DNA of 64,000 nt from Candidatus Marinacidobacterales bacterium (GTDB lineage: Bacteria > Acidobacteriota > Vicinamibacteria > Marinacidobacterales > SMYC01), in assembly GCA_965237955.1 (NCBI GenBank), contig OZ250169.1, positions 6,304,001-6,368,000 on the forward strand. Reading direction: 5' to 3'. The notes beneath the pieces are model-generated. The model was not told the origin of the DNA. It searched no databases and worked only from the letters and a program-made list of their open reading frames with translations. Made by a program: the position numbers and the translations under genes. Of this stretch, positions 54,304 through 63,039 are shown in pieces. How positions within the stretch are numbered: position 1 is the first letter of the stretch; every line of letters begins with the position of its first letter.

Positions 54304-56019
54304 GCCTCTCCTGCCATTTCAGTGGATCCTCTCGAGGGTGAGACCGCCACAGTTTAGGTAGACGAGACTGATGAGAGCTTCGGCAGAGTGGAGTCCAAAG
54401 CTGCGGTGGCTCAGCAGCCGGATTTTGTTGTTCATTCCTTCGAGTCGGCCGTTGCTGAGTCTCCACGTGACCCACGCGATGACGCCATCGAAGTGGCTGC
54501 TCATCTTCGCCGCGCGTTTGACGGGCTCTATCCTCGAGCTCATAGCGCGCCGCAGCCATCCTCGGAGAAACTTCTTGGCCCATGTCTCGGTTTTGTAGGT
54601 GTAGAGGTCCATGAAGTTGTCGCGCAGAAGCATGGCGCGGTAGAGGCGACGATTAGCTCGCACCTGCTCGCGGAGCACCCGTTTGTCTTTCGCGCTGCGG
54701 TTGTGTTTGGCCTTGAGAAGGGGAAACTTGGTGTTCTTGAGGTTGCGCCGGGCAGTCCCTTTGAGCTCGCGCACCAGCTCGCGCCGGGTCTTATCCACGG
54801 CCTCGTTCAGATGCTTGACGATGTGGAAGCGGTCAAAGATCACCCGTGCCTGAGGAGCCTTTTTGCCGACGACAGTTATGTACGGCTCCCACATGTCCAT
54901 GCTGACCGCTTCGAGCTCCGCGGCTCTTTGTGGTCCGAGCTTGCGGAAAAACCGCAGCAGCGTCTTGGCCTTGCGCTCCTTTCCCGCCCAGACGACCCGG
55001 CCGCTGAGATGGTCTATTACCACTGTTAAGTACTTGTGGCGTTTGCGGTAGCTGATCTCGTCCATCCCAATCACCCGCAATCCATCGAGCTCGCGCCGCT
55101 CATCCCGCTGCTCGGCAACCACTCGCTGGATGATCCGTCGCACCGAACGCCACGTCACTCGGAAATAGTTCGCTACGGCGCTGACGTCCGTCCTCTGTGC
55201 CAGCCACGCTACCTCTTGTTCGAAGCTTTTGGTAAAGCGGCTTCCCTTGTCGGCCCAAGGCACCTTTTCTCTGACCACTCCACACCGCCGACATACTACT
55301 CGTCGGATCGAGTAGCGAAGATAGGTCCGGACTCCGAACAGGTCCAAGTGCCGCCAGTAGCGATTGTAGCGATCTTTGTTCTTGCGGACCTTTCGTCCGC
55401 AAATCCCGCACAGAGGCTTCCTCCTCCGTGGTACTACATCCACCACCACTCTGGCTTTGTCCGCCTGGAAGTGGAAACCTCGGACCCACAGGCCTTGCAA
55501 TCCGATGAGCTTGTTGACTAACGTAGTAACGCGCATCGCTGGAACGCTCTTTTCTCTTTCGGAAAAAAAGATTCTAGCGTTCTCGCCGATGCGCATCTAC
55601 ACATGGCTTACCCTCTCAACCCACGGGCCTCACCAAATGCCACTGCCCCTCAGCGGGAGACGAGGCTGTGGGAAACGCCCCCACGGTTCTGGTCGTTCAG
55701 ACCTTGCTCACGACTGAGTTCTCTTCGAAGCCTGGAAGGGCGTTTTCCATAGCCTCCACTAATCGAGCCCCCCCTTCCTTATTCCATATGAATTAATCTT
55801 TCTTGTATATATATCAGGAGGGGCCTGTGGGCGCTCGTGGGAAACGCGAAGCGTTTTCCAAGCGATTGTGGAAAACGCCGCTCCACGTTTGTACGTGCTC
55901 ACAACCTTTCCCTAAACGCCTCTCTCGCCCGGAGTTTCCGGCGTTTTCCACAATCGCGGCAGCGTCCATAGGCCATGCCCTCCAACACAAATCAGATCCC
56001 CCGAAACGACAGGAGAACC
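54304..56019 (-). mobile_element. ISL3-family insertion sequence, copy 2 (1716 bp)
   Basis: Same IRs as copy 1; own 8-bp TSD ACATTATT at 54296-54303 and 56020-56027. Confidence 0.95.
54319..55536 (-). CDS. ISL3-family transposase
   Basis: As copy 1; intact C-terminus RSFGLHS; 3-bp deletion relative to copy 1. Confidence 0.93.
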   Translation of the reverse strand: MRVTTLVNKLIGLQGLWVRGFHFQADKARVVVDVVPRRRKPLCGICGRKVRKNKDRYNRYWRHLDLFGVRTYLRYSIRRVVCRRCGVVREKVPWADKGSRFTKSFEQEVAWLAQRTDVSAVANYFRVTWRSVRRIIQRVVAEQRDERRELDGLRVIGMDEISYRKRHKYLTVVIDHLSGRVVWAGKERKAKTLLRFFRKLGPQRAAELEAVSMDMWEPYITVVGKKAPQARVIFDRFHIVKHLNEAVDKTRRELVRELKGTARRNLKNTKFPLLKAKHNRSAKDKRVLREQVRANRRLYRAMLLRDNFMDLYTYKTETWAKKFLRGWLRRAMSSRIEPVKRAAKMSSHFDGVIAWVTWRLSNGRLEGMNNKIRLLSHRSFGLHSAEALISLVYLNCGGLTLERIH

Positions 56020-56030
56020 ACATTATTAAA

Positions 56031-56308
56031 GGCGCGGTGCAACGTGGTCTAACGGTAACGTCGCCCAATTCGGGCTAACGCCGACTCGCGGTGCTACATC
56101 ATCCGCTACGGTTTCTACAGAACGAGGTCAGGGAAACGCCGTCGATATCGCTGCGTCGGGTGCGGAAAGACGTTCCCCGACGAAAGGCACGCCCTACTAC
56201 AGTCTCCAGCATCGGCGAGCTACGTTCGATGCGGTCGTGGCGCTCAGAGTTGAGGGCGTCAGCATTTCCGCGATTGCTCGGATCGAAGGGATTGCCTGGA
56301 ACACCGTC
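56031..56308 (+). pseudogene. IS1-family transposase N-terminal remnant (Zn ribbon + HTH)
   Basis: IIRYGFYRTRSGKRRRYRCVGCGKTF / TKGTPYY..VEGVSISAIARIEGIAWNTV, frameshifted and truncated. Confidence 0.65.
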
Positions 56309-56487
56309 AGAGAGGCCCGGGCGATCGATGGCAACGCGATGACGGCGAGATGGTAGACGGAGGTAACGGAGGCGTGCCTGGGCGAAAGGAAACTCGCCAC
56401 CACGGTGGATCGCGTTCCGCGTCGGCTCACGAAATATCCATCGACCTCTTCTCGAGCACTTTGGTTCGGAGAGAGCGGTCGGGAAGT

Positions 56488-56516
56488 TTGACTTAGCGCG
56501 AAGCTTCGGGGAGAAT
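56488..56516 (+). promoter_or_regulatory. Putative sigma-70 promoter for the His-rich leader (leaderless start)
   Basis: TTGACT-N17-GAGAAT, 7 nt before GTG 56524. Confidence 0.5.
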
Positions 56517-56523
56517 CAACGTT

Positions 56524-56985
56524 GTGAAGGGCCATGTCCATAGGATTGTCACTGCAAGCCTCCAGATAGCTGCGCTGATCGTTTTCTCGGCTGCGGCTCC
56601 TCTGGCTCATCTTCATCAAGGTCAAGGTCAACGCGGTCGAGGTCACTTCGATCATCACGAACGTCACGGGGAGCTCCCGCCACATCACGGGATCACATTT
56701 CATGCTCATTTAGACGGCCACCCGCACGGCTCGAACCAAGAGTCCACTGAGGATCCTAGCGGCCGGGGTGAGAGCCAAGACGATTCCCTGAACATCTCGC
56801 ACGGCCGGATGGACTCAACCCGCATCGAGCGGCCCGCGGGTCCCCACCTCGCGCTCGCGGCCACGGTCGAGCTCAGTCCCCCATCGACTACGTGTCCTGC
56901 CCTCGCCAGCGCTGGTTTTGACGTCTATCGCCCGCCGCCGCTTCTCTTCCGAAAGCCTGTCCGTGCCCCACCCTCCTCTTGCTAA
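56524..56985 (+). CDS. His-rich leader ORF with signal/TM N-terminus and C-terminal RAPP arrest motif (putative regulatory uORF)
   Basis: IAALIVFSAAAPLAHLH, His-rich core, RPPP...VRAPP (RAPP codons 56962-56973), then SSC stop. Confidence 0.75.
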   Translation: MKGHVHRIVTASLQIAALIVFSAAAPLAHLHQGQGQRGRGHFDHHERHGELPPHHGITFHAHLDGHPHGSNQESTEDPSGRGESQDDSLNISHGRMDSTRIERPAGPHLALAATVELSPPSTTCPALASAGFDVYRPPPLLFRKPVRAPPSSC

Positions 56986-56999
56986 GAGGTAAGTGAGTC

Positions 57000-57083
57000 T
57001 GCCTTTCTAAAGGCACATCCACTTTTTCTTTTTTTTCCGAATTCTTAGCATTCTTAACTGGGTTGATGCCCGCATCGGAAGGA
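57000..57083 (+). promoter_or_regulatory. Attenuator-like spacer: hairpin, U-tract and anti-SD pairing
   Basis: TGCCTTT-CT-AAAGGCA (57000-57015), T-rich 57023-57036, TTCCGA (57035-57040) complementary to TCGGAA overlapping the SD (57075-57083). Confidence 0.5.
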
Positions 57084-57088
57084 CGTGT

Positions 57089-58414
57089 ATGTCCGAAAAG
57101 GTGACGATCGCATTGGGTCTCGGACGGAACTTGTTTCTCACGACGCTGACTGCGGTTTCCGCGGTCCTGCCCCAGGTATCGGCGCCCCAGGTATCCGCGG
57201 AAGAGTCCGTCCAGCGAATCACCCTCGAGCAGGCGTTAGAGATGTTCGAAGAGAACAACCTGGAGCTCCGTGTAGTAGCGGCCGAGCGTGACCGGGCACT
57301 CGGCTTCGCCGAGCAGGCCAAAGCGCATCCAAATCCGGTGGCGGCAGTTAGCCACGAGGGTTTGTCTGAGAGTGGGCGAGACTACTCGGAAAGCTACTTC
57401 ACGCTCAGCCAGCGTCTGGAGTGGCCAGGACGACGTGGGGCGCGAGCAGAGACGTCGGGCGGGGAGGCGGCCGCGCTGGAATCGAGGCTCGATGCGGAGC
57501 GCCATCGACTCGCGTTCGAGGTGAAGCGGACCTTCATCGAGGCGGTGGATGCGGAGGAACGGGTGGCCGTTGCCTCTGAAGTCCGCTCGGTTTTCCGGAT
57601 GGCGGAGAATAGCGGCCGGGAGCGTTTCCGCGAGGGGGACCTATCCGGCTATGACGCGCGACGACTTCGCATCGAGCGAGCGCGTTACGAAAACCTTGGC
57701 GCGTCGGCCGAAATTGATCTCAAGAACGCGCGTCTACGGCTCGCGTCCTTGATTCTCCCCGGAGCGCCCGGACAAGACCTCCAGGAGATCGCCCCAACGG
57801 CGGCGCCCGAGGGCGTACCTCCGTCCGTCCGGGAGCTTCAGGAGAAAACGGCGGTAGCACTCGCTCTCGAGCGGCGGGCGGACATGCGAAGCGCTGAGGC
57901 GCAGATGGCCGCGGCGGACGCTTCCATCCGGTATCTCTCGACCTTCACGGGGCCGGATGTGACGTTGACAGGAGGCTACAAGCGGCAATCCGATGGCTTC
58001 GATGGCTTTTTCTTGGGAGTGAACGTTCCGCTTCCCACGTTCGACCGTCGGAAAGGGGACCTCGAAGCCGCCGAGGCCGGTTTGCGTGCCGCGATCGCGC
58101 GGGTTGATCTCACCCGGCGTTCGATCGAGAACGACGTGCGGAGCTCGCTGGCAGCGTATGCGTCCGTCTCCGAGCGCATCGTCCTGATTCGCAACCAGCT
58201 CCTGACTGGAACCGACGATCTGCTTCGGATCGCGCGCGTGAGCTACAGCGAGGGCGAGATGTCTCTGCTGGAGCTCCTCGATGCCGCCGAAGCGTTCACA
58301 GAATTACAGACCATGGAGTCGCAACTCAAGTCGGAGCACTGGATTCGTTACTACGACCTCGAGCGCGCGACGGGTACAGCCATCAGCGTCATGACAGGGG
58401 AAATCGAGCCATGA
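57089..58414 (+). CDS. TolC/CzcC-family outer membrane factor
   Basis: NNLEL, HPNP, SQRLEWPGRR, VPLPTFDR, YSEGEMSLLELLDA. Confidence 0.9.
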   Translation: MSEKVTIALGLGRNLFLTTLTAVSAVLPQVSAPQVSAEESVQRITLEQALEMFEENNLELRVVAAERDRALGFAEQAKAHPNPVAAVSHEGLSESGRDYSESYFTLSQRLEWPGRRGARAETSGGEAAALESRLDAERHRLAFEVKRTFIEAVDAEERVAVASEVRSVFRMAENSGRERFREGDLSGYDARRLRIERARYENLGASAEIDLKNARLRLASLILPGAPGQDLQEIAPTAAPEGVPPSVRELQEKTAVALALERRADMRSAEAQMAAADASIRYLSTFTGPDVTLTGGYKRQSDGFDGFFLGVNVPLPTFDRRKGDLEAAEAGLRAAIARVDLTRRSIENDVRSSLAAYASVSERIVLIRNQLLTGTDDLLRIARVSYSEGEMSLLELLDAAEAFTELQTMESQLKSEHWIRYYDLERATGTAISVMTGEIEP

Positions 58415-59923
58415 AGACATCGGCGAATGCGTTGACCGTGGATCTTGCTATCGTCCTCCTTGCGTTCGGCCTTACGAGCTGCGTCGAACCAAGGCCGAGC
58501 GGTGACGTAAGCCAGGAGGAGGATCACGAGCACGGGGGCGGAGCGGCGGTCACGATCTGGACAGAGAACGTGGAGCTCTTTTTCGAGTATCCCCCTATGG
58601 TGGCGGGTGGGGCCGGCGAACCGTGGGCCATCCATCTGACCTTTCTCGAGGACTTCCAGCCGGTGAGAGAGGGCAAACTGACGCTCCGCTTCGTCGGACC
58701 GGATCAGAAGGAGTACACGAGCGTCGCCGAGACTCCGGCGCGAGACGGGATCTTCACGCCGGCCCCCTCGCTTCCGAACGAAGAGGCTTACCAACTCACG
58801 ATGACCCTCGAAAGCCCGAGGGGGGAGGAAGAGATTCCGGTGGGCGAGATCCGCGTCTTCGGCTCGAGCGCAGAGCTCCCGCACGCAGAGGACGCTCCCG
58901 CCGCCGGCATCTCTTTCCTCAAGGAGCAGCAGTGGACCACTCCCTTCGCCACCGCGCCCGCGATCGAGCGCGAGCTCAAGCGGTCGATATCGGCGAACGG
59001 CGAAATCGTTCCGGTCCCGAATGCCGTCGCTCGAGTTACGGCGCCAGTGGAAGGAATCGTCCGCGCGAAGCACAACCTCGGCGCACCCATTCCCGGTGAT
59101 TGGGTGGAAGCGGGAGAGCGAATCGCCGTTTTGTCCCCCGTCCCGGAGGAGAACGCCTACGCGGCGCTCAAGGCCAAGGTGGAAGCGCTTGGAGCGCGAA
59201 GTCGAGCGTGCCGAGCGGCTGAGCGCGGTCGAGGCCATCCCGGAGAGACGGCTCGTCGAAGCGCGGCACGACCTGGAAGTGAGCCGCGCCGCGCTCGAAG
59301 CCGTCGGCGACGTGGACGGAGAGGGTTACGAGCTGACGCTCACCGCTCCCATCAACGGTCTCGTGACGGAGCGTAATCTGACAATAGGCGAGAGGGTTCG
59401 TGCAGGCGAACGCCTGTTCAGCATCGTCGACCCAAAAACGCTGTGGCTACGCGTCCAGATTCCCGCTCGGGAGGCGGCAATCGTGTCCGAGGTTTCGAGT
59501 GGGTCGTTTACAGTCGAAGGGAGCCCACGGGTGTACGACGGTGCCCGGCTCGTCTCTGTCGGAGCCGCTATCGACCCCGAACGGCGCACGCTTCCGGTGG
59601 TCCTCGAAACGCGAAATCGAGACGGAAGGCTGAAGGTCGGGATGCTCGTCGAAGCCCGGCTCTTCCTCGCCGAAAGCGTTGAGGGAGTCGCGGTCCCCTC
59701 ACGGGCGCTCCGCAAAGAGGACGCCCTCGACGTGGCGTACGTCCAAGTAGGTGGAGAGAGCTTCGAGCGGCGTGTGCTTGCGCTCGGGCCCTCAGACGGC
59801 AAGTGGACCCTGGTGACGGGCGGTATCCGTTCTGGCGAGCGCGTCGTCACCGAAGGTGCTTATCAGGTTCGCCTCGCGTCGCTCAACGCGTCGGAGATCG
59901 CGGATCACGGCCACCCACATTAG
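58411..59923 (+). CDS. CzcB-like membrane fusion lipoprotein (1-nt frameshift near 59185)
   Basis: Lipobox LTSC, DHEH, T.W...ELFFEYPP, FLKEQQW, LTAPING, GESFERR, C-terminal HGHPH. Confidence 0.85.
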
Positions 59924-59934
59924 AAGACTGCATA

Positions 59935-62900
59935 ATGCTGGACAAAGTCATCCGTTGGTCTCTGCAAAACCGCCTGGTCACGCTTTTCGGCGCTGCCGCG
60001 GTATTGGCCGGAGGCCTCTATTCGGCGGTAACGATCCCTATCGATGTCTTCCCGGACTTGACCGCGCCCACGGTGACCGTGCTCACGGAAGCGCACGGCA
60101 TGGCGGCCGAGGAGGTCGAGCTTCTCGTCACCTTCCCCATCGAGACCGCGGTCAACGGCGCCGCCGGCGTGAGGCGGGTGCGCTCGTCGTCCGCTCAAGG
60201 AATCAGCATCGTCTGGGTCGAGTTCGACTGGGGTGAGGACATCTACCGTGCGCGCCAGATCGTAAGTGAGAAGCTTCAGCTTGTCGCCGCCCAGCTCCCC
60301 CGGAGCACGAGCCCACCGGTTCTCGCACCCATCACTTCCATCATGGGTGAGATCTTGCTCGTGGGCCTCACGAGCGAAAGTCTCCCTCCGATGGAGGTAC
60401 GAACCGTCGCCGACTGGGTGGTTAGGAAGCGGCTTCTCGCCATTCCGGGCGTGGCTCAAGTCGTTCCCATCGGAGGAGCGGTGAAGCAGTATCAGGTCCT
60501 GGTTCACCCCGATCGTCTGCGTTCCTACGGTGTGACGCTTTCGGACGTGCTCCGCGCCGCCGAGAGCTCGAACGCCATTGCCTCGGGCGGTGTCTATCTC
60601 GAGAGCGGGCAGGAGATCCTCATCCGGGGCCTAGGCCGCGTTCAGCAGCTCGCGGACATTGAAAAAACGGTGGTGCGCCTCTCGAGCGGCACTCCCGTCC
60701 GTATCGGCGACGTCGCCGACGTTTCGATCGGCGCCAAGCCTCGTTTCGGGACCGCCTCCGTCAACGCCGAGCCTGCCGTCGTCCTTTCTATCCAGAAACA
60801 GCCGAACGCGAACACACTCGAGCTGACGAAGCGGATCGACGAGGAGCTCGACCGGCTGAAGGCGAGCCTCCCCGAGGGGATCGCCATCAACCGGGGGATC
60901 TTCCGGCAAGCCGACTTCATCTCTTTGGCGGTAGACAACGTTTTTGAGGCGCTTCGCGACGGCGCGCTTCTCGTCGTCGTCATCCTGTTCCTCTTCCTCT
61001 GGAACTTCCGCACCACACTGATTTCCATCGTCGCCATCCCGCTGTCGCTCGCTGTCGCCGTCATCACGATGAAGCTCCTCGGAATCACGATCAACACCAT
61101 GACCCTCGGCGGGATGGCGATCGCGATCGGCGCCCTCGTGGACGATGCGATCATCGACGTCGAGAATACCTTCCGCCGCCTGAGGGAGAACCGCCGCCTT
61201 CCGGAGCCAGAGCGCCGGCGGGCTCTCCCCGTCGTTTACGACGCAGCGCGAGAGATTCGTGCTCCCATCGTGAAGGCCACGGTCATTATTTCGATTGTCT
61301 TCGTTCCTCTGTTCTTCCTCTCCGGAGTCGAGGGCTGCATGCTTCAGCCTCTGGGCTTTGCTTACATCGTCAGCATCCTCGCGTCGCTCGGGGTGGCGGT
61401 TACCGTCACGCCGGTCCTCTGTTCGTTCCTGCTTCCCCGAGCAGGTTTCCTCGACCGGGAGCGTGAGAGCTGGCTAGTGGAACGCTTGAAGGGAGTCTAC
61501 GCGCGGACGCTCGCCCTCGTTCTGAAACACCCGACGGCGGTCACGATCGCAGCGGTGCCCTTCGTCGTCGTGACGGTAGCACTCTTCCCGTTCCTGGGTC
61601 GGGGCTTTCTACCGGAGTTCCAGGAGGGAACGCTCACCGTGTCCGCGGTGACCGTGCCGGGAACGGGCATCGTAGAGTCTGACGAGCTCGGGCGGCTGGT
61701 CGAGCGGAAGATGCTAGCGCACCCTGCGGTGGTTTCCACCGCGCGGCGCACAGGGCGAGCCGAGCTCGACGAGCACGCTCAGGGTGTGAACGCCTCCGAG
61801 ATCGACGTTGTCTTGATCAGCGATCTTTCCCAGGCAGAGCTCTCAGACGTCATGGACGAGCTCCGGGTGGAGCTCGCCACCGTTCCCGGAACCAACATCA
61901 CGATGGGTCAGCCGATCGGCCATCGTATCGACCACATGCTCTCCGGCACGCGTGCTGCGATCGCCGTCAAGATCTTCGGGCCCGAGCTGCACGAGCTCCG
62001 CCGGATCGCGGAGGCTGTGAGGACCGCTGTTGAGGACGTGCCCAGAGTAGCCGACCTGGCGGTCGAGCAGCAGGCGGACGTACCCCAACTTCGCATCGCC
62101 GCCGATCGCGACGCCATGAGCAAGTACGGCGTGACTCCGGGGACTCTTGCCGAGGCCATCGATGTAGCCTTCTATGGAGAACCCGTCTCTCAGGTGCTCG
62201 AAGGACAAAACGCCTTCGACCTCGTCGTGCGCTTCGATGCGGAACATCGTGGAAGTGCCGAGAAGATACGGAACACGGTCATCGATACGCCTCTCGGCGC
62301 GAGGGTTGAGCTTGCATGGCTCGCCTAGATCGCGGAGGACCGCGGGCCCAACACGGTCTCCCGGGAGAACGTCCAGAGAAAGATTGTGGTGCAATCGAAC
62401 GTCAGCGGCCGTGACGTGGCGAGCGTGGTCGAGGAATTCCGCGAGAGAATCGACACGAGCATCGAACTTCCCCAGGGCTACTACGTCGAGTACGGCGGCC
62501 AGTTCGAAAGCGGTGAGGCGGCGGCTCGCGCGATCAGCGTTTTATCGGCCGTTTCCATTCTCGCCATCTTCCTGATCCTCTACCAGGAGTTCGGAAGTGC
62601 TAGCACCGCGCTTCTCATCATGGTCAACTTGCCGCTGGCTCTGATCGGCGGTGTAGGGGCGCTTCTCGCATCGGGTGGGGTGCTGAACGTTGCCTCGTTG
62701 GTGGGTTTCATCACCCTGTTCGGCATCGCCGTCAGAAACGGCATTCTTCTCGTTAGCCACTACAATCGCCTGATGGTGGAAGGCGAGCCTCGCCGAGAGG
62801 CGGTCGTCCGGGGCTCCCTCGAGCGGCTGAATCCCATTCTCATGACGGCCTTGACCGCGGCTCTCGCGCTCATTCCACTCGCCATCGGCGGTGGTGAGGC

Positions 62901-63039
62901 AGGAAAGGAGATCCAGTCCCCGATGGCGATCGTGGTGCTAGGAGGACTTTTGAGCTCGGCCGCCCTCAACATGGTCGTGGTGCCCGCTCTTTTCCTTCGC
63001 TATGGGAAGCAGGCGCGAGCCACGGAGGTCCTTGAATGA
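59935..63039 (+). pseudogene. CzcA/NrsA-like divalent-metal RND transporter with in-frame TAG at 62326-62328
   Basis: DVFPDLTAP, LVDDAIIDVEN, GRAELDEH, RNGILL, ERLNPILMT; the reading frame continues unchanged after the TAG. Confidence 0.85.

Follow-up and report, generated by a model that had tools for sequence, protein, structure and literature searches.

In the genome of Candidatus Marinacidobacterales bacterium (assembly GCA_965237955.1), a single 8.13-Mb contig of 60% GC, a stretch of 64,000 nucleotides (nt) (contig OZ250169.1, positions 6,304,001 to 6,368,000; hereafter the window) carries an operon for a heavy-metal efflux pump of the resistance-nodulation-division (RND) type, in which the tolC gene is preceded by a 153-amino-acid (aa) open reading frame (ORF) at 56524-56985 that ends in the ribosome arrest motif RAPP. 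Judged by its conservation and by selection on its frame, this ORF is a real gene, and very probably it acts in cis as an arrest leader for the pump. The more specific proposal, in which the leader follows the logic described for CutF and a divalent metal, nickel by prediction, makes the stall at RAPP last longer and thereby turns on translation of TolC, the adaptor and a permease of heavy-metal efflux class 5 (HME5), has a slightly better than even chance of being correct.

The leader protein closes with YRPPPLLFRKPVRAPPSSC (RAPPSSC), its Pro-Pro pair falling within the last 15 residues, and the CxxC copper motif is absent from it. This RAPP end had been recognised in the initial annotation of the window, which also described a TTGACT-17-GAGAAT promoter that would place the GTG start codon at the transcript start. 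The promoter is indeed present: its -10 element ends 7 nt upstream of the GTG, and all 16 close sequences (described below) keep a -35/17/-10 set at a distance of 7-9 nt upstream of their start codons despite differing upstream genes (13 called by pattern, 3 by eye). Transcription is predicted to begin within about 1 nt of the GTG, and the leader mRNA is likely leaderless. Two promoter-like sites fall within 55500-58000, where 0.3 would be expected, and neither lies in the spacer between leader and tolC; as far as sequence can tell, the spacer holds no separate tolC promoter. Hydropathy of the leader peaks at residues 6-30, where a structure model places a helix (residues 2-24; predicted local distance difference test, pLDDT, 90-96 over residues 1-20) that is the sole confident element of the model (predicted template modelling score, pTM, 0.31). 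Two HxH motifs follow and may bind metal. The register of the predicted stall, with Pro149 in the P site, was taken from the toeprint of CruR (PMC12992588). RAPP lies 115 nt from the tolC ATG (57089), as noted earlier, and the spacer, put then at about 100 nt, measures 103 nt; an imperfect 9-10-nt tandem duplication at 57042-57059 lengthens it from the 86-94 nt seen in 15 relatives.

Selection on the reading frame can be followed through related loci. A close tolC orthologue occurs in 10 of 40 relatives, with an intact leader in front of it in nine. In the tenth (G018) the promoter and the first 30 codons remain, the leader being cut by an insertion element and tolC frameshifted; loci L038 and L011 (G018), in which the leader is cut after about 30 codons and tolC is spread over three frames, represent joint decay of the two genes. 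Metagenomes yielded nine further loci, seven of them complete and one a duplicate of L007, which brings the close group to 16 distinct sequences including the window (dropped were L045 and L046, at contig ends, and L048, whose spacer is that of L007). Within this group the motif is RAPP in 15 sequences and RGPP in one, always three codons from the stop. The leaders of the relatives all have lengths that are multiples of 3 (at most 151 aa in 14 of 14, and 140-151 aa in 13), and three of the 14 start with ATG instead of GTG. The ratio of nonsynonymous to synonymous substitution rates (dN/dS), taken between the window and each relative, stays below 1 in 14/14 pairs (range 0.23-0.74), and 0.23-0.46 in the eight pairs with a dS of at least 0.5. 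By these ratios the leader frame is under purifying selection; neither an untranslated ORF nor an unconserved RAPP frame, outcomes that the initial annotation had kept in view, is what the sequences indicate.

The family extends well beyond this group. A weak profile match in another family of the same class led to 30 more tolC loci, of which 25 were informative after the removal of one from an unpublished genome (L055), two truncated ones lacking the 5' end of tolC (L064, L066) and two duplicates (L077, L078); L039, the same as L049, was left out as well. DNA coding for RAPP or RGPP stands directly upstream of tolC in all 25, within an intact His-rich ORF in 22 and a frameshifted one in three, and RAPP lies five codons from the stop in 18 of 23 (L050 and L065, being frameshifted, were excluded from folding, and L067 was folded even though the frame of its N-terminal half is disrupted). 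In the alignment of 35 members, H29, H31, H60, H62, P139 and R-x-P-P never vary, even where identity drops to 16%, the His quartet persisting across sequences that are 16-27% identical. A profile search retrieved at least 331 proteins; among the 120 matches listed, nearly all are unnamed and none has a Pfam domain on record, while 119 end in RAPP or RGPP, all 120 contain a pair of HxH motifs and a Cys pair (CxxC, CxxxC or CC) turns up in 3; the motif counts are partly circular in that the profile itself includes the motif. In a sample of 401 genomes from the phylum, 8 gave a match to the profile. The leader represents a real, previously unnamed, His-only branch of metal-linked RAPP leaders.

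Links to named families were sought as well. The affiliation with DUF2946 that had been put forward initially was not borne out, since none of the 35 members matches PF11162 at E up to 1 and the host genome contains no match at E 0.1. The ESM Atlas places relatives in unnamed clusters, with DUF6769 on 35% of one cluster's members, which is a lead only, and a Pfam scan of the members found no DUF6769. Pfam and NCBIfam scans returned no CzcI-named family, a direct comparison with CzcI not having been made. Two further features of the motif region were recorded: H-[GDS]-P-P occurs about 10 residues before RAPP in 110 of the 120 matches listed (the L049-L085 region), the window's branch having YRPPP, and the A-site Pro codon of RAPP is CCT in 14/23 distant loci vs 28/317 Pro codons of their tolC genes, and CCC in 14/16 close loci, a preference that reflects either inheritance or a constraint at the RNA level.

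The genes downstream of the leader encode a TolC/CzcC-like outer-membrane factor, a periplasmic adaptor and a permease of the CusA/CzcA family. The fourth transmembrane helix (TM4) of the permease, AIGALVDDAIIDVEN, fits the AIG-x3-DDA-x3-VEN of NieA (signature AIG-x3-DD-x4-[VM]EN), and its HAQGV and HRIDH correspond to HAEGVH and HRLDH of NieA. A TM4 of HME5 type is present in 22 of the 23 downstream regions examined, which were chosen via tolC or the leader and are hence not independent (L021-L027, loci already counted, were used for downstream genes only). In PMC7060636, in whose supplement NieA has its own row, HME5 is the class predicted to export Ni, and its characterised cyanobacterial members are one Ni pump and one Cu pump. 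The signature thus points to Ni more than to Zn or Co, which makes Ni the first candidate metal, and the record of those members leaves the specificity of the pump less than certain. The adaptor gene, split by a frameshift in the window, is one ORF in most of L021-L027; one base at 59183 is missing from contigs of three public runs whose strain match is uncertain. Where the permease gene has a TAG (62326-62328) a relative has Glu, and one low-depth contig from another study spans the TAG unchanged.

Between leader and pump genes, three stretches of RNA can pair with tolC's Shine-Dalgarno sequence (SD): a coding CUUCCGA (missing from L008-L010), one arm of a hairpin, and the end of a U-tract. 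The last of these matches the pairing of TTCCGA (57035-40) with TCGGAA (57075-80) that had been noticed at the outset; it can form, but the two other stretches complement the SD as well. The hairpin then drawn as TGCCTTT-CT-AAAGGCA also exists, but since a 2-nt loop is impossible its core folds as 6 bp (UGCCUU/AAGGCA) closed by a UCUA loop (57000-57015), and it is extended through two small internal loops by a lower stem, AAGUG/CACUU (-12 kcal/mol, z -2.9, 4/200 shuffles as good). Only this extended hairpin directly reaches the U-tract, the long U-run of the earlier description, which reads T5-C-T8 (57023-36). A simple terminator scan does not list this hairpin. The invariant 5' arm UGCCU doubles as an anti-SD, its CCUUUC being complementary to the SD. 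The stop region offers alternative partners, CCUCUU with AAGAGG, UGCUAAGAG with 57042-50 and AGAGGUA with the 5' arm of the hairpin, and a nested fold cannot hold both the helix between 57042-50 and the stop region and the anti-SD:SD helix. Duplexes of the 57032-57050 segments reach -10.2 and -10.8 kcal/mol in the window; that of the stop region is weak (above -5) in 7/16 close sequences. Over the 16 close sequences the pairs of the hairpin core are kept in 97.8% of cells and those of arm:SD in 95.8%, in an alignment that is not structural and has some misplaced gaps, and a search for Rfam families in the region returned none at E up to 1. Distant loci, whose spacers are only 46-97 nt long, retain an SD helix, GUCC:GGAC, without any U-tract. 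A spacer that masks the SD is well supported, and the exact switch is not.

In the scheme favoured here, the conserved promoter would give rise to a near-leaderless mRNA, and the N-terminal helix would direct the nascent chain to Sec. The HxH motifs sit 87-118 residues before RAPP, a distance at which they could reach the periplasm while the ribosome is on RAPP. Without metal, translocation would free the chain, the ribosome would finish, and one of the three anti-SDs would capture the tolC SD. With metal bound to the exported HxH motifs, the stall would persist and ribosomes would queue over the coding anti-SD, whereupon the stop region, lying just outside the footprint, could pair with 57042-50 or the hairpin arm and so open the SD. 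Such metal-on logic fits an efflux pump. In the window's branch, the U-tract may contribute weak termination.

Folding predictions agree with this scheme when all mRNA before the ribosome is blocked, as queued ribosomes would do; in all RNA-switch counts, here and below, the related sequences are not independent of each other. Under this blocking, opening of the ribosome-binding site (RBS) in the window is predicted to cost 10.4 kcal/mol in free RNA, 7.7 kcal/mol with a stalled ribosome (8.7 with a longer footprint) and 10.3 kcal/mol with a ribosome at the stop, a switch of 2.7 kcal/mol, and in about 8/16 close and 15/23 distant loci (counted by eye) stalling gives the lowest cost by a margin above 0.5 kcal/mol. 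In the window none of 60 shuffles lowers the opening energy as far as the segment of the stop region does, and in the same test the distant loci fall below the median in 21 of 23 cases and at or below 0.1 in 11. Codons of the arrest site were considered as a selected anti-SD and rejected, synonymous recodings being as good (at or below 0.1 in 0/16 and 1/23; window 0.52); perfect 9-bp matches of this kind occur in L008 and L009. Control by access to the SD is better supported than control by termination, in predictions that depend on the model used.

Several observations weigh against the scheme. The control of SD access by ribosome position, which the initial annotation had suggested, is predicted when upstream mRNA is blocked but vanishes in the window with a local footprint (-15 to +12; 10.4, 10.8 and 10.3 kcal/mol), the coding CUUCCGA recapturing the SD when upstream mRNA is left free, and under that footprint only 3/16 close and 9/23 distant loci switch. 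Even in its best state the RBS stays 7-8 kcal/mol closed. Within the close group the shuffle test of the stop region falls below the median in 11/16 cases and at or below 0.1 in only three, and among the 16 sequences two-sided changes are absent from the arm:SD helix and from the helices that would be 2:3 and 3:4 in the numbering of trp-type attenuators. The His region is unstructured in the leader model, which predicts neither a fold nor a metal site, and CruR shows that metal can also relieve a RAPP stall. Finally, the adaptor and RND genes look broken, and the pump may be dead or inactive in this lineage; with a possibly dead pump, the regulatory inference rests on the leader family.

The precedent of CruR raises the opposite sign of response, in which metal would relieve the stall and a ribosome at the stop would cover the lower stem of the terminator, allowing readthrough, while a stalled ribosome would leave the full terminator to form. 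That terminator can form with a ribosome on RAPP, and its lower stem does lie at the footprint edge of a terminating ribosome (GUG 56993-95, +14 from the last sense codon), but the outcome hinges on a footprint difference of 1-2 nt and on the short time that a ribosome spends at the stop; the predictions of SD access, Rho and antiterminator in relatives all have the stall as the ON state, and distant members lack the terminator. This arrangement is very improbable. A leader without any metal switch would serve either to monitor secretion on behalf of a Sec-dependent pump or, once secreted, as a His-rich metal buffer whose RAPP paces only its own export. Initially, RAPP peptides were reported as monitors of Sec/YidC, and the failure of the leader model to predict a fold or a metal site would be in keeping with such a role, which is nevertheless improbable in view of the four His residues that stay invariant between highly diverged members, the association with HME5 pumps, the fixed spacing from RAPP to the stop and the conserved spacer.

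Control at the level of termination has to be weighed in two forms. In an intrinsic attenuator of trp type, the hairpin and U-tract would terminate transcription at about 57030 when no ribosome is present or one has reached the stop, and a stall at RAPP would free AGAGGUA to pair with the hairpin arm as antiterminator. The free RNA does fold into 1:2 and 3:4 hairpins ahead of the U-tract, at least 6 T occur within 9 nt after the hairpin in 16/16 close loci, and 12 of the 16 can form a 2:3 hairpin with an energy of at most -6 kcal/mol (window -6.0). The terminator score of the window (formula of d'Aubenton Carafa) is 12, reached by 6 of 900 sampled 3' ends of long ORFs, many of which are spurious or internal to operons, and by one in 100 dinucleotide shuffles; its rarity in both indicates that hairpin and U-tract are more than a chance combination. 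With upstream mRNA blocked, stalling lowers the terminator core to 0.03 in L002, 0.18 in L005, 0.40 in L047 and 0.62 in L043/L044, with a return to about 1 at the stop. In the window itself, however, the core holds at 0.99 with a stalled ribosome, and with a local footprint the antiterminator attains no more than 0.21-0.27 until the 3' arm has emerged, a clean switch being found in 1/16 loci; a trp-like switch is thus not favoured for the window. Moreover, the score is positive in only 6/16 close and 0/23 distant loci, the 3' arm of the hairpin has decayed in L003 and L004 and the antiterminator is nearly gone in L008-L010, the helices lack covariation, and the U-tract is explained equally well by its anti-SD role. 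The attenuator is therefore unlikely, intrinsic attenuation is at most a branch-specific layer, and the ribosome-controlled termination envisaged in the initial annotation is not a feature of the family, the window's hairpin being predicted to form whatever the position of the ribosome. A composite, with a periplasmic nickel-sensing RAPP arrest peptide on a leaderless mRNA that, in the window's branch, drives a trp-like, Rho-independent attenuator atop the ancestral SD switch of the family, is distinctly unlikely.

The alternative form is Rho-dependent control as in CruR, where a stalled ribosome would cover a C-rich Rho utilisation (rut) site and, upon its release, Rho would terminate transcription at the pause offered by the hairpin and U-tract. 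C exceeds G throughout 56780-57020 (36 vs 16 in one 78-nt segment, for example), a rho-like motif is present in the host genome, and CruR operates by this route. Pro-rich coding yields an excess of C in any case; the spacer is structured and directed at the SD, and in distant members it measures 46-97 nt, as compared with 162 nt in cruR-bfrG. Rho-dependent control is improbable here. The SD-access scheme remains the favoured reading, and the features on which it draws are collected in the table.

Table. Features of the leader, the spacer and the downstream operon (window coordinates)
Feature	Position	Strand	Basis or remark
Sigma70-type promoter TTGACT-17-GAGAAT	56488-56516	+	-35 at 56488-93, -10 at 56511-16
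Leader ORF, GTG start, C-terminal RAPP	56524-56985	+	153 aa, 16 His, 2 Cys
Hydrophobic N-terminal helix, predicted signal peptide or signal anchor	56527-56607	+	Hydropathy, structure model
His-rich segment with two HxH motifs (H29/H31, H60/H62), candidate metal site	56608-56709	+	Invariance
Coding CUUCCGA, complement of the tolC SD	56946-56952	+	SD-paired in the free-RNA fold
RAPP arrest motif	56962-56973	+	Ribosome predicted to stall with CCA (56968-70) occupying the P site and CCC the A site
Final codons with the stop region, segments for alternative pairing	56975-56991	+	Folds, duplexes
Terminator-like hairpin and U-tract	56991-57036	+	Core 57000-57015; extended 56991-57024; U-tract 57023-57036
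Anti-SD UUUUUCCGA (57032-40) and adjacent UUCUUAGCA (57042-50)	57032-57050	+	Duplex energies
GGG/CCC hairpin, SD GGAAGGA (57077-83) and tolC ATG (57089)	57059-57091	+	Sequence, folds
TolC/CzcC-like outer-membrane factor	57089-58414	+	PF02321, E 4e-35
Periplasmic adaptor gene, frameshifted near 59183	58411-59923	+	Two overlapping ORFs
HME5 (NieA/NrsA-type) heavy-metal RND permease, TAG-interrupted at 62326-62328	59935-63039	+	TIGR00914

The surroundings of the operon contain further candidates of a similar kind. A second leader-like ORF (54249-53872, minus strand; 125 aa) has a hydrophobic N-terminus, ECC..HHC..DCC and a C-terminal RGSPP... It stops 31 nt short of a divergent CusCBA-type operon (53840-47483; TM4 AIGAMVDAAIIIIEN) and has relatives in 7 of 40 genomes, so that the Cu-type pump of the window goes with a Cys leader and the HME5 pump with a His leader; the two metal operons are separated by the end of an insertion sequence present in more than 50 genomic copies and an ISL3 transposase (54319-56030). 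At L014, L016 and L020 unrelated tolC genes in the same order are preceded by further small leaders that are rich in Cys and end in Pro-rich stretches (..CFCC..RPPKSS; ..CC..PPLFLR..). Elsewhere in the genome, an ORF ending in ..GSPRAPPA (G000:C1, about 3212929, minus strand), 29 nt before a 775-aa exported-looking protein, is a further candidate RAPP leader, while a genome-wide motif scan for such leaders produced mostly chance matches. In X19, the one run on record as RNA, contigs of related strains cover the leader and not the spacer or tolC; contigs give no level, and this coverage is hence not evidence.

The experimentally supported metal-sensing stalling leaders described in the sources available, CutF and CruR, are copper sensors with cysteine motifs. 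With its four invariant His, the absence of a Cys motif and its consistent link to HME5, the leader described here offers a clean test case for the sensing of Ni, Zn or Co by nascent-chain stalling. If the proposal is correct, it would explain how HME5-type pumps are regulated; no regulator gene flanks the operon within the window. The spacer differs by branch, with a U-tract in close loci and none in distant ones, and the family thus provides a natural comparison of one arrest motif wired to different RNA switches. Should the composite reading hold, the leader would combine a stalling sensor for a non-copper metal with a RAPP peptide coupled to intrinsic termination. A literature search brought up no His-only RAPP leader ahead of an HME5 pump, no RAPP peptide that drives intrinsic termination and no stall shown to sense a non-copper metal, most subscription journals lying outside its reach.

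Among known systems, trp-type attenuators resemble the leader region in that the sequence around the stop codon allows 1:2, 2:3 and 3:4 hairpins with a U-tract to be drawn; the leader differs from them in being a 153-aa arrest peptide, predicted to be exported, for which switching is robustly predicted in only a minority of the relatives but not for the window itself. The RAPP/RGPP arrest peptides (SecM-like, ApdA/ApdP) are also small and, as predicted for the leader, secretory, with RAPP near the C-terminus and an SD-masking structure downstream, and opening of the SD by peptides of this type has been described (PMC10987492); their targets are sec and yidC, whereas that of the leader is a metal pump. 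The available text of PMC12992588 and PMC10987492 does not name TolC as a target class for them, and TolC targets may be present in the lists of PMC12992588, which catalogues small RAPP proteins before metal genes. CzcI and NieI (Cupriavidus), like the leader, are small genes heading heavy-metal RND operons (before czcCBA and in nieIC-cep-nieBA), and NieA shares the HME5 signature with the leader's pump, as listed in the supplement of PMC7060636; CzcI, considered here by description only, is reported in PMC9973294 to lack a C-terminal proline motif, in contrast to the RAPP of the leader.

The closest parallels are CruR and CutF. CruR (Bp2923, DUF2946/PF11162, before bfrG in Bordetella pertussis), a CxxC/RAPP leader that uses Rho (PMC9426467), shares with the leader a length of about 150 aa, its place as first gene of the operon, an export signal (predicted for the leader), a C-terminal RAPP, a long spacer and a C-rich 3' end; the leader differs in having no CxxC or PF11162 match, in preceding an exporter rather than an importer, and in a likely control through the SD rather than Rho. 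In CutF, Cu-induced stalling opens an SD hairpin (PMC9973294; bioRxiv 10.1101/2025.02.05.636593). CutF has CxxxC, while the leader has His only, a true RAPP, a likely leaderless mRNA, an HME5 pump and, in the window's branch, a terminator-like U-tract. In the survey of CutF-like proteins (PMC9973294), outer-membrane efflux genes are the commonest downstream neighbours, and the His-only clusters 14 and 17 precede HupE/UreJ, whereas the leader precedes an RND outer-membrane factor; at 153 aa it exceeds the survey's limit of 150 aa, which is a filter and not a biological limit, and the supplement text does not name Acidobacteria, the full protein list possibly lying outside it. In other respects the leader parallels CutF-cutO of Rhodobacter capsulatus, being a small, probably exported upstream ORF with a putative metal-binding segment, a C-terminal proline motif and an SD-masking spacer before a detoxification gene and, by inference, a metal-on logic; the same-strand metal-homeostasis gene expected near a CutF-like protein is found here 103 nt away, in the form of an HME RND outer-membrane efflux gene.

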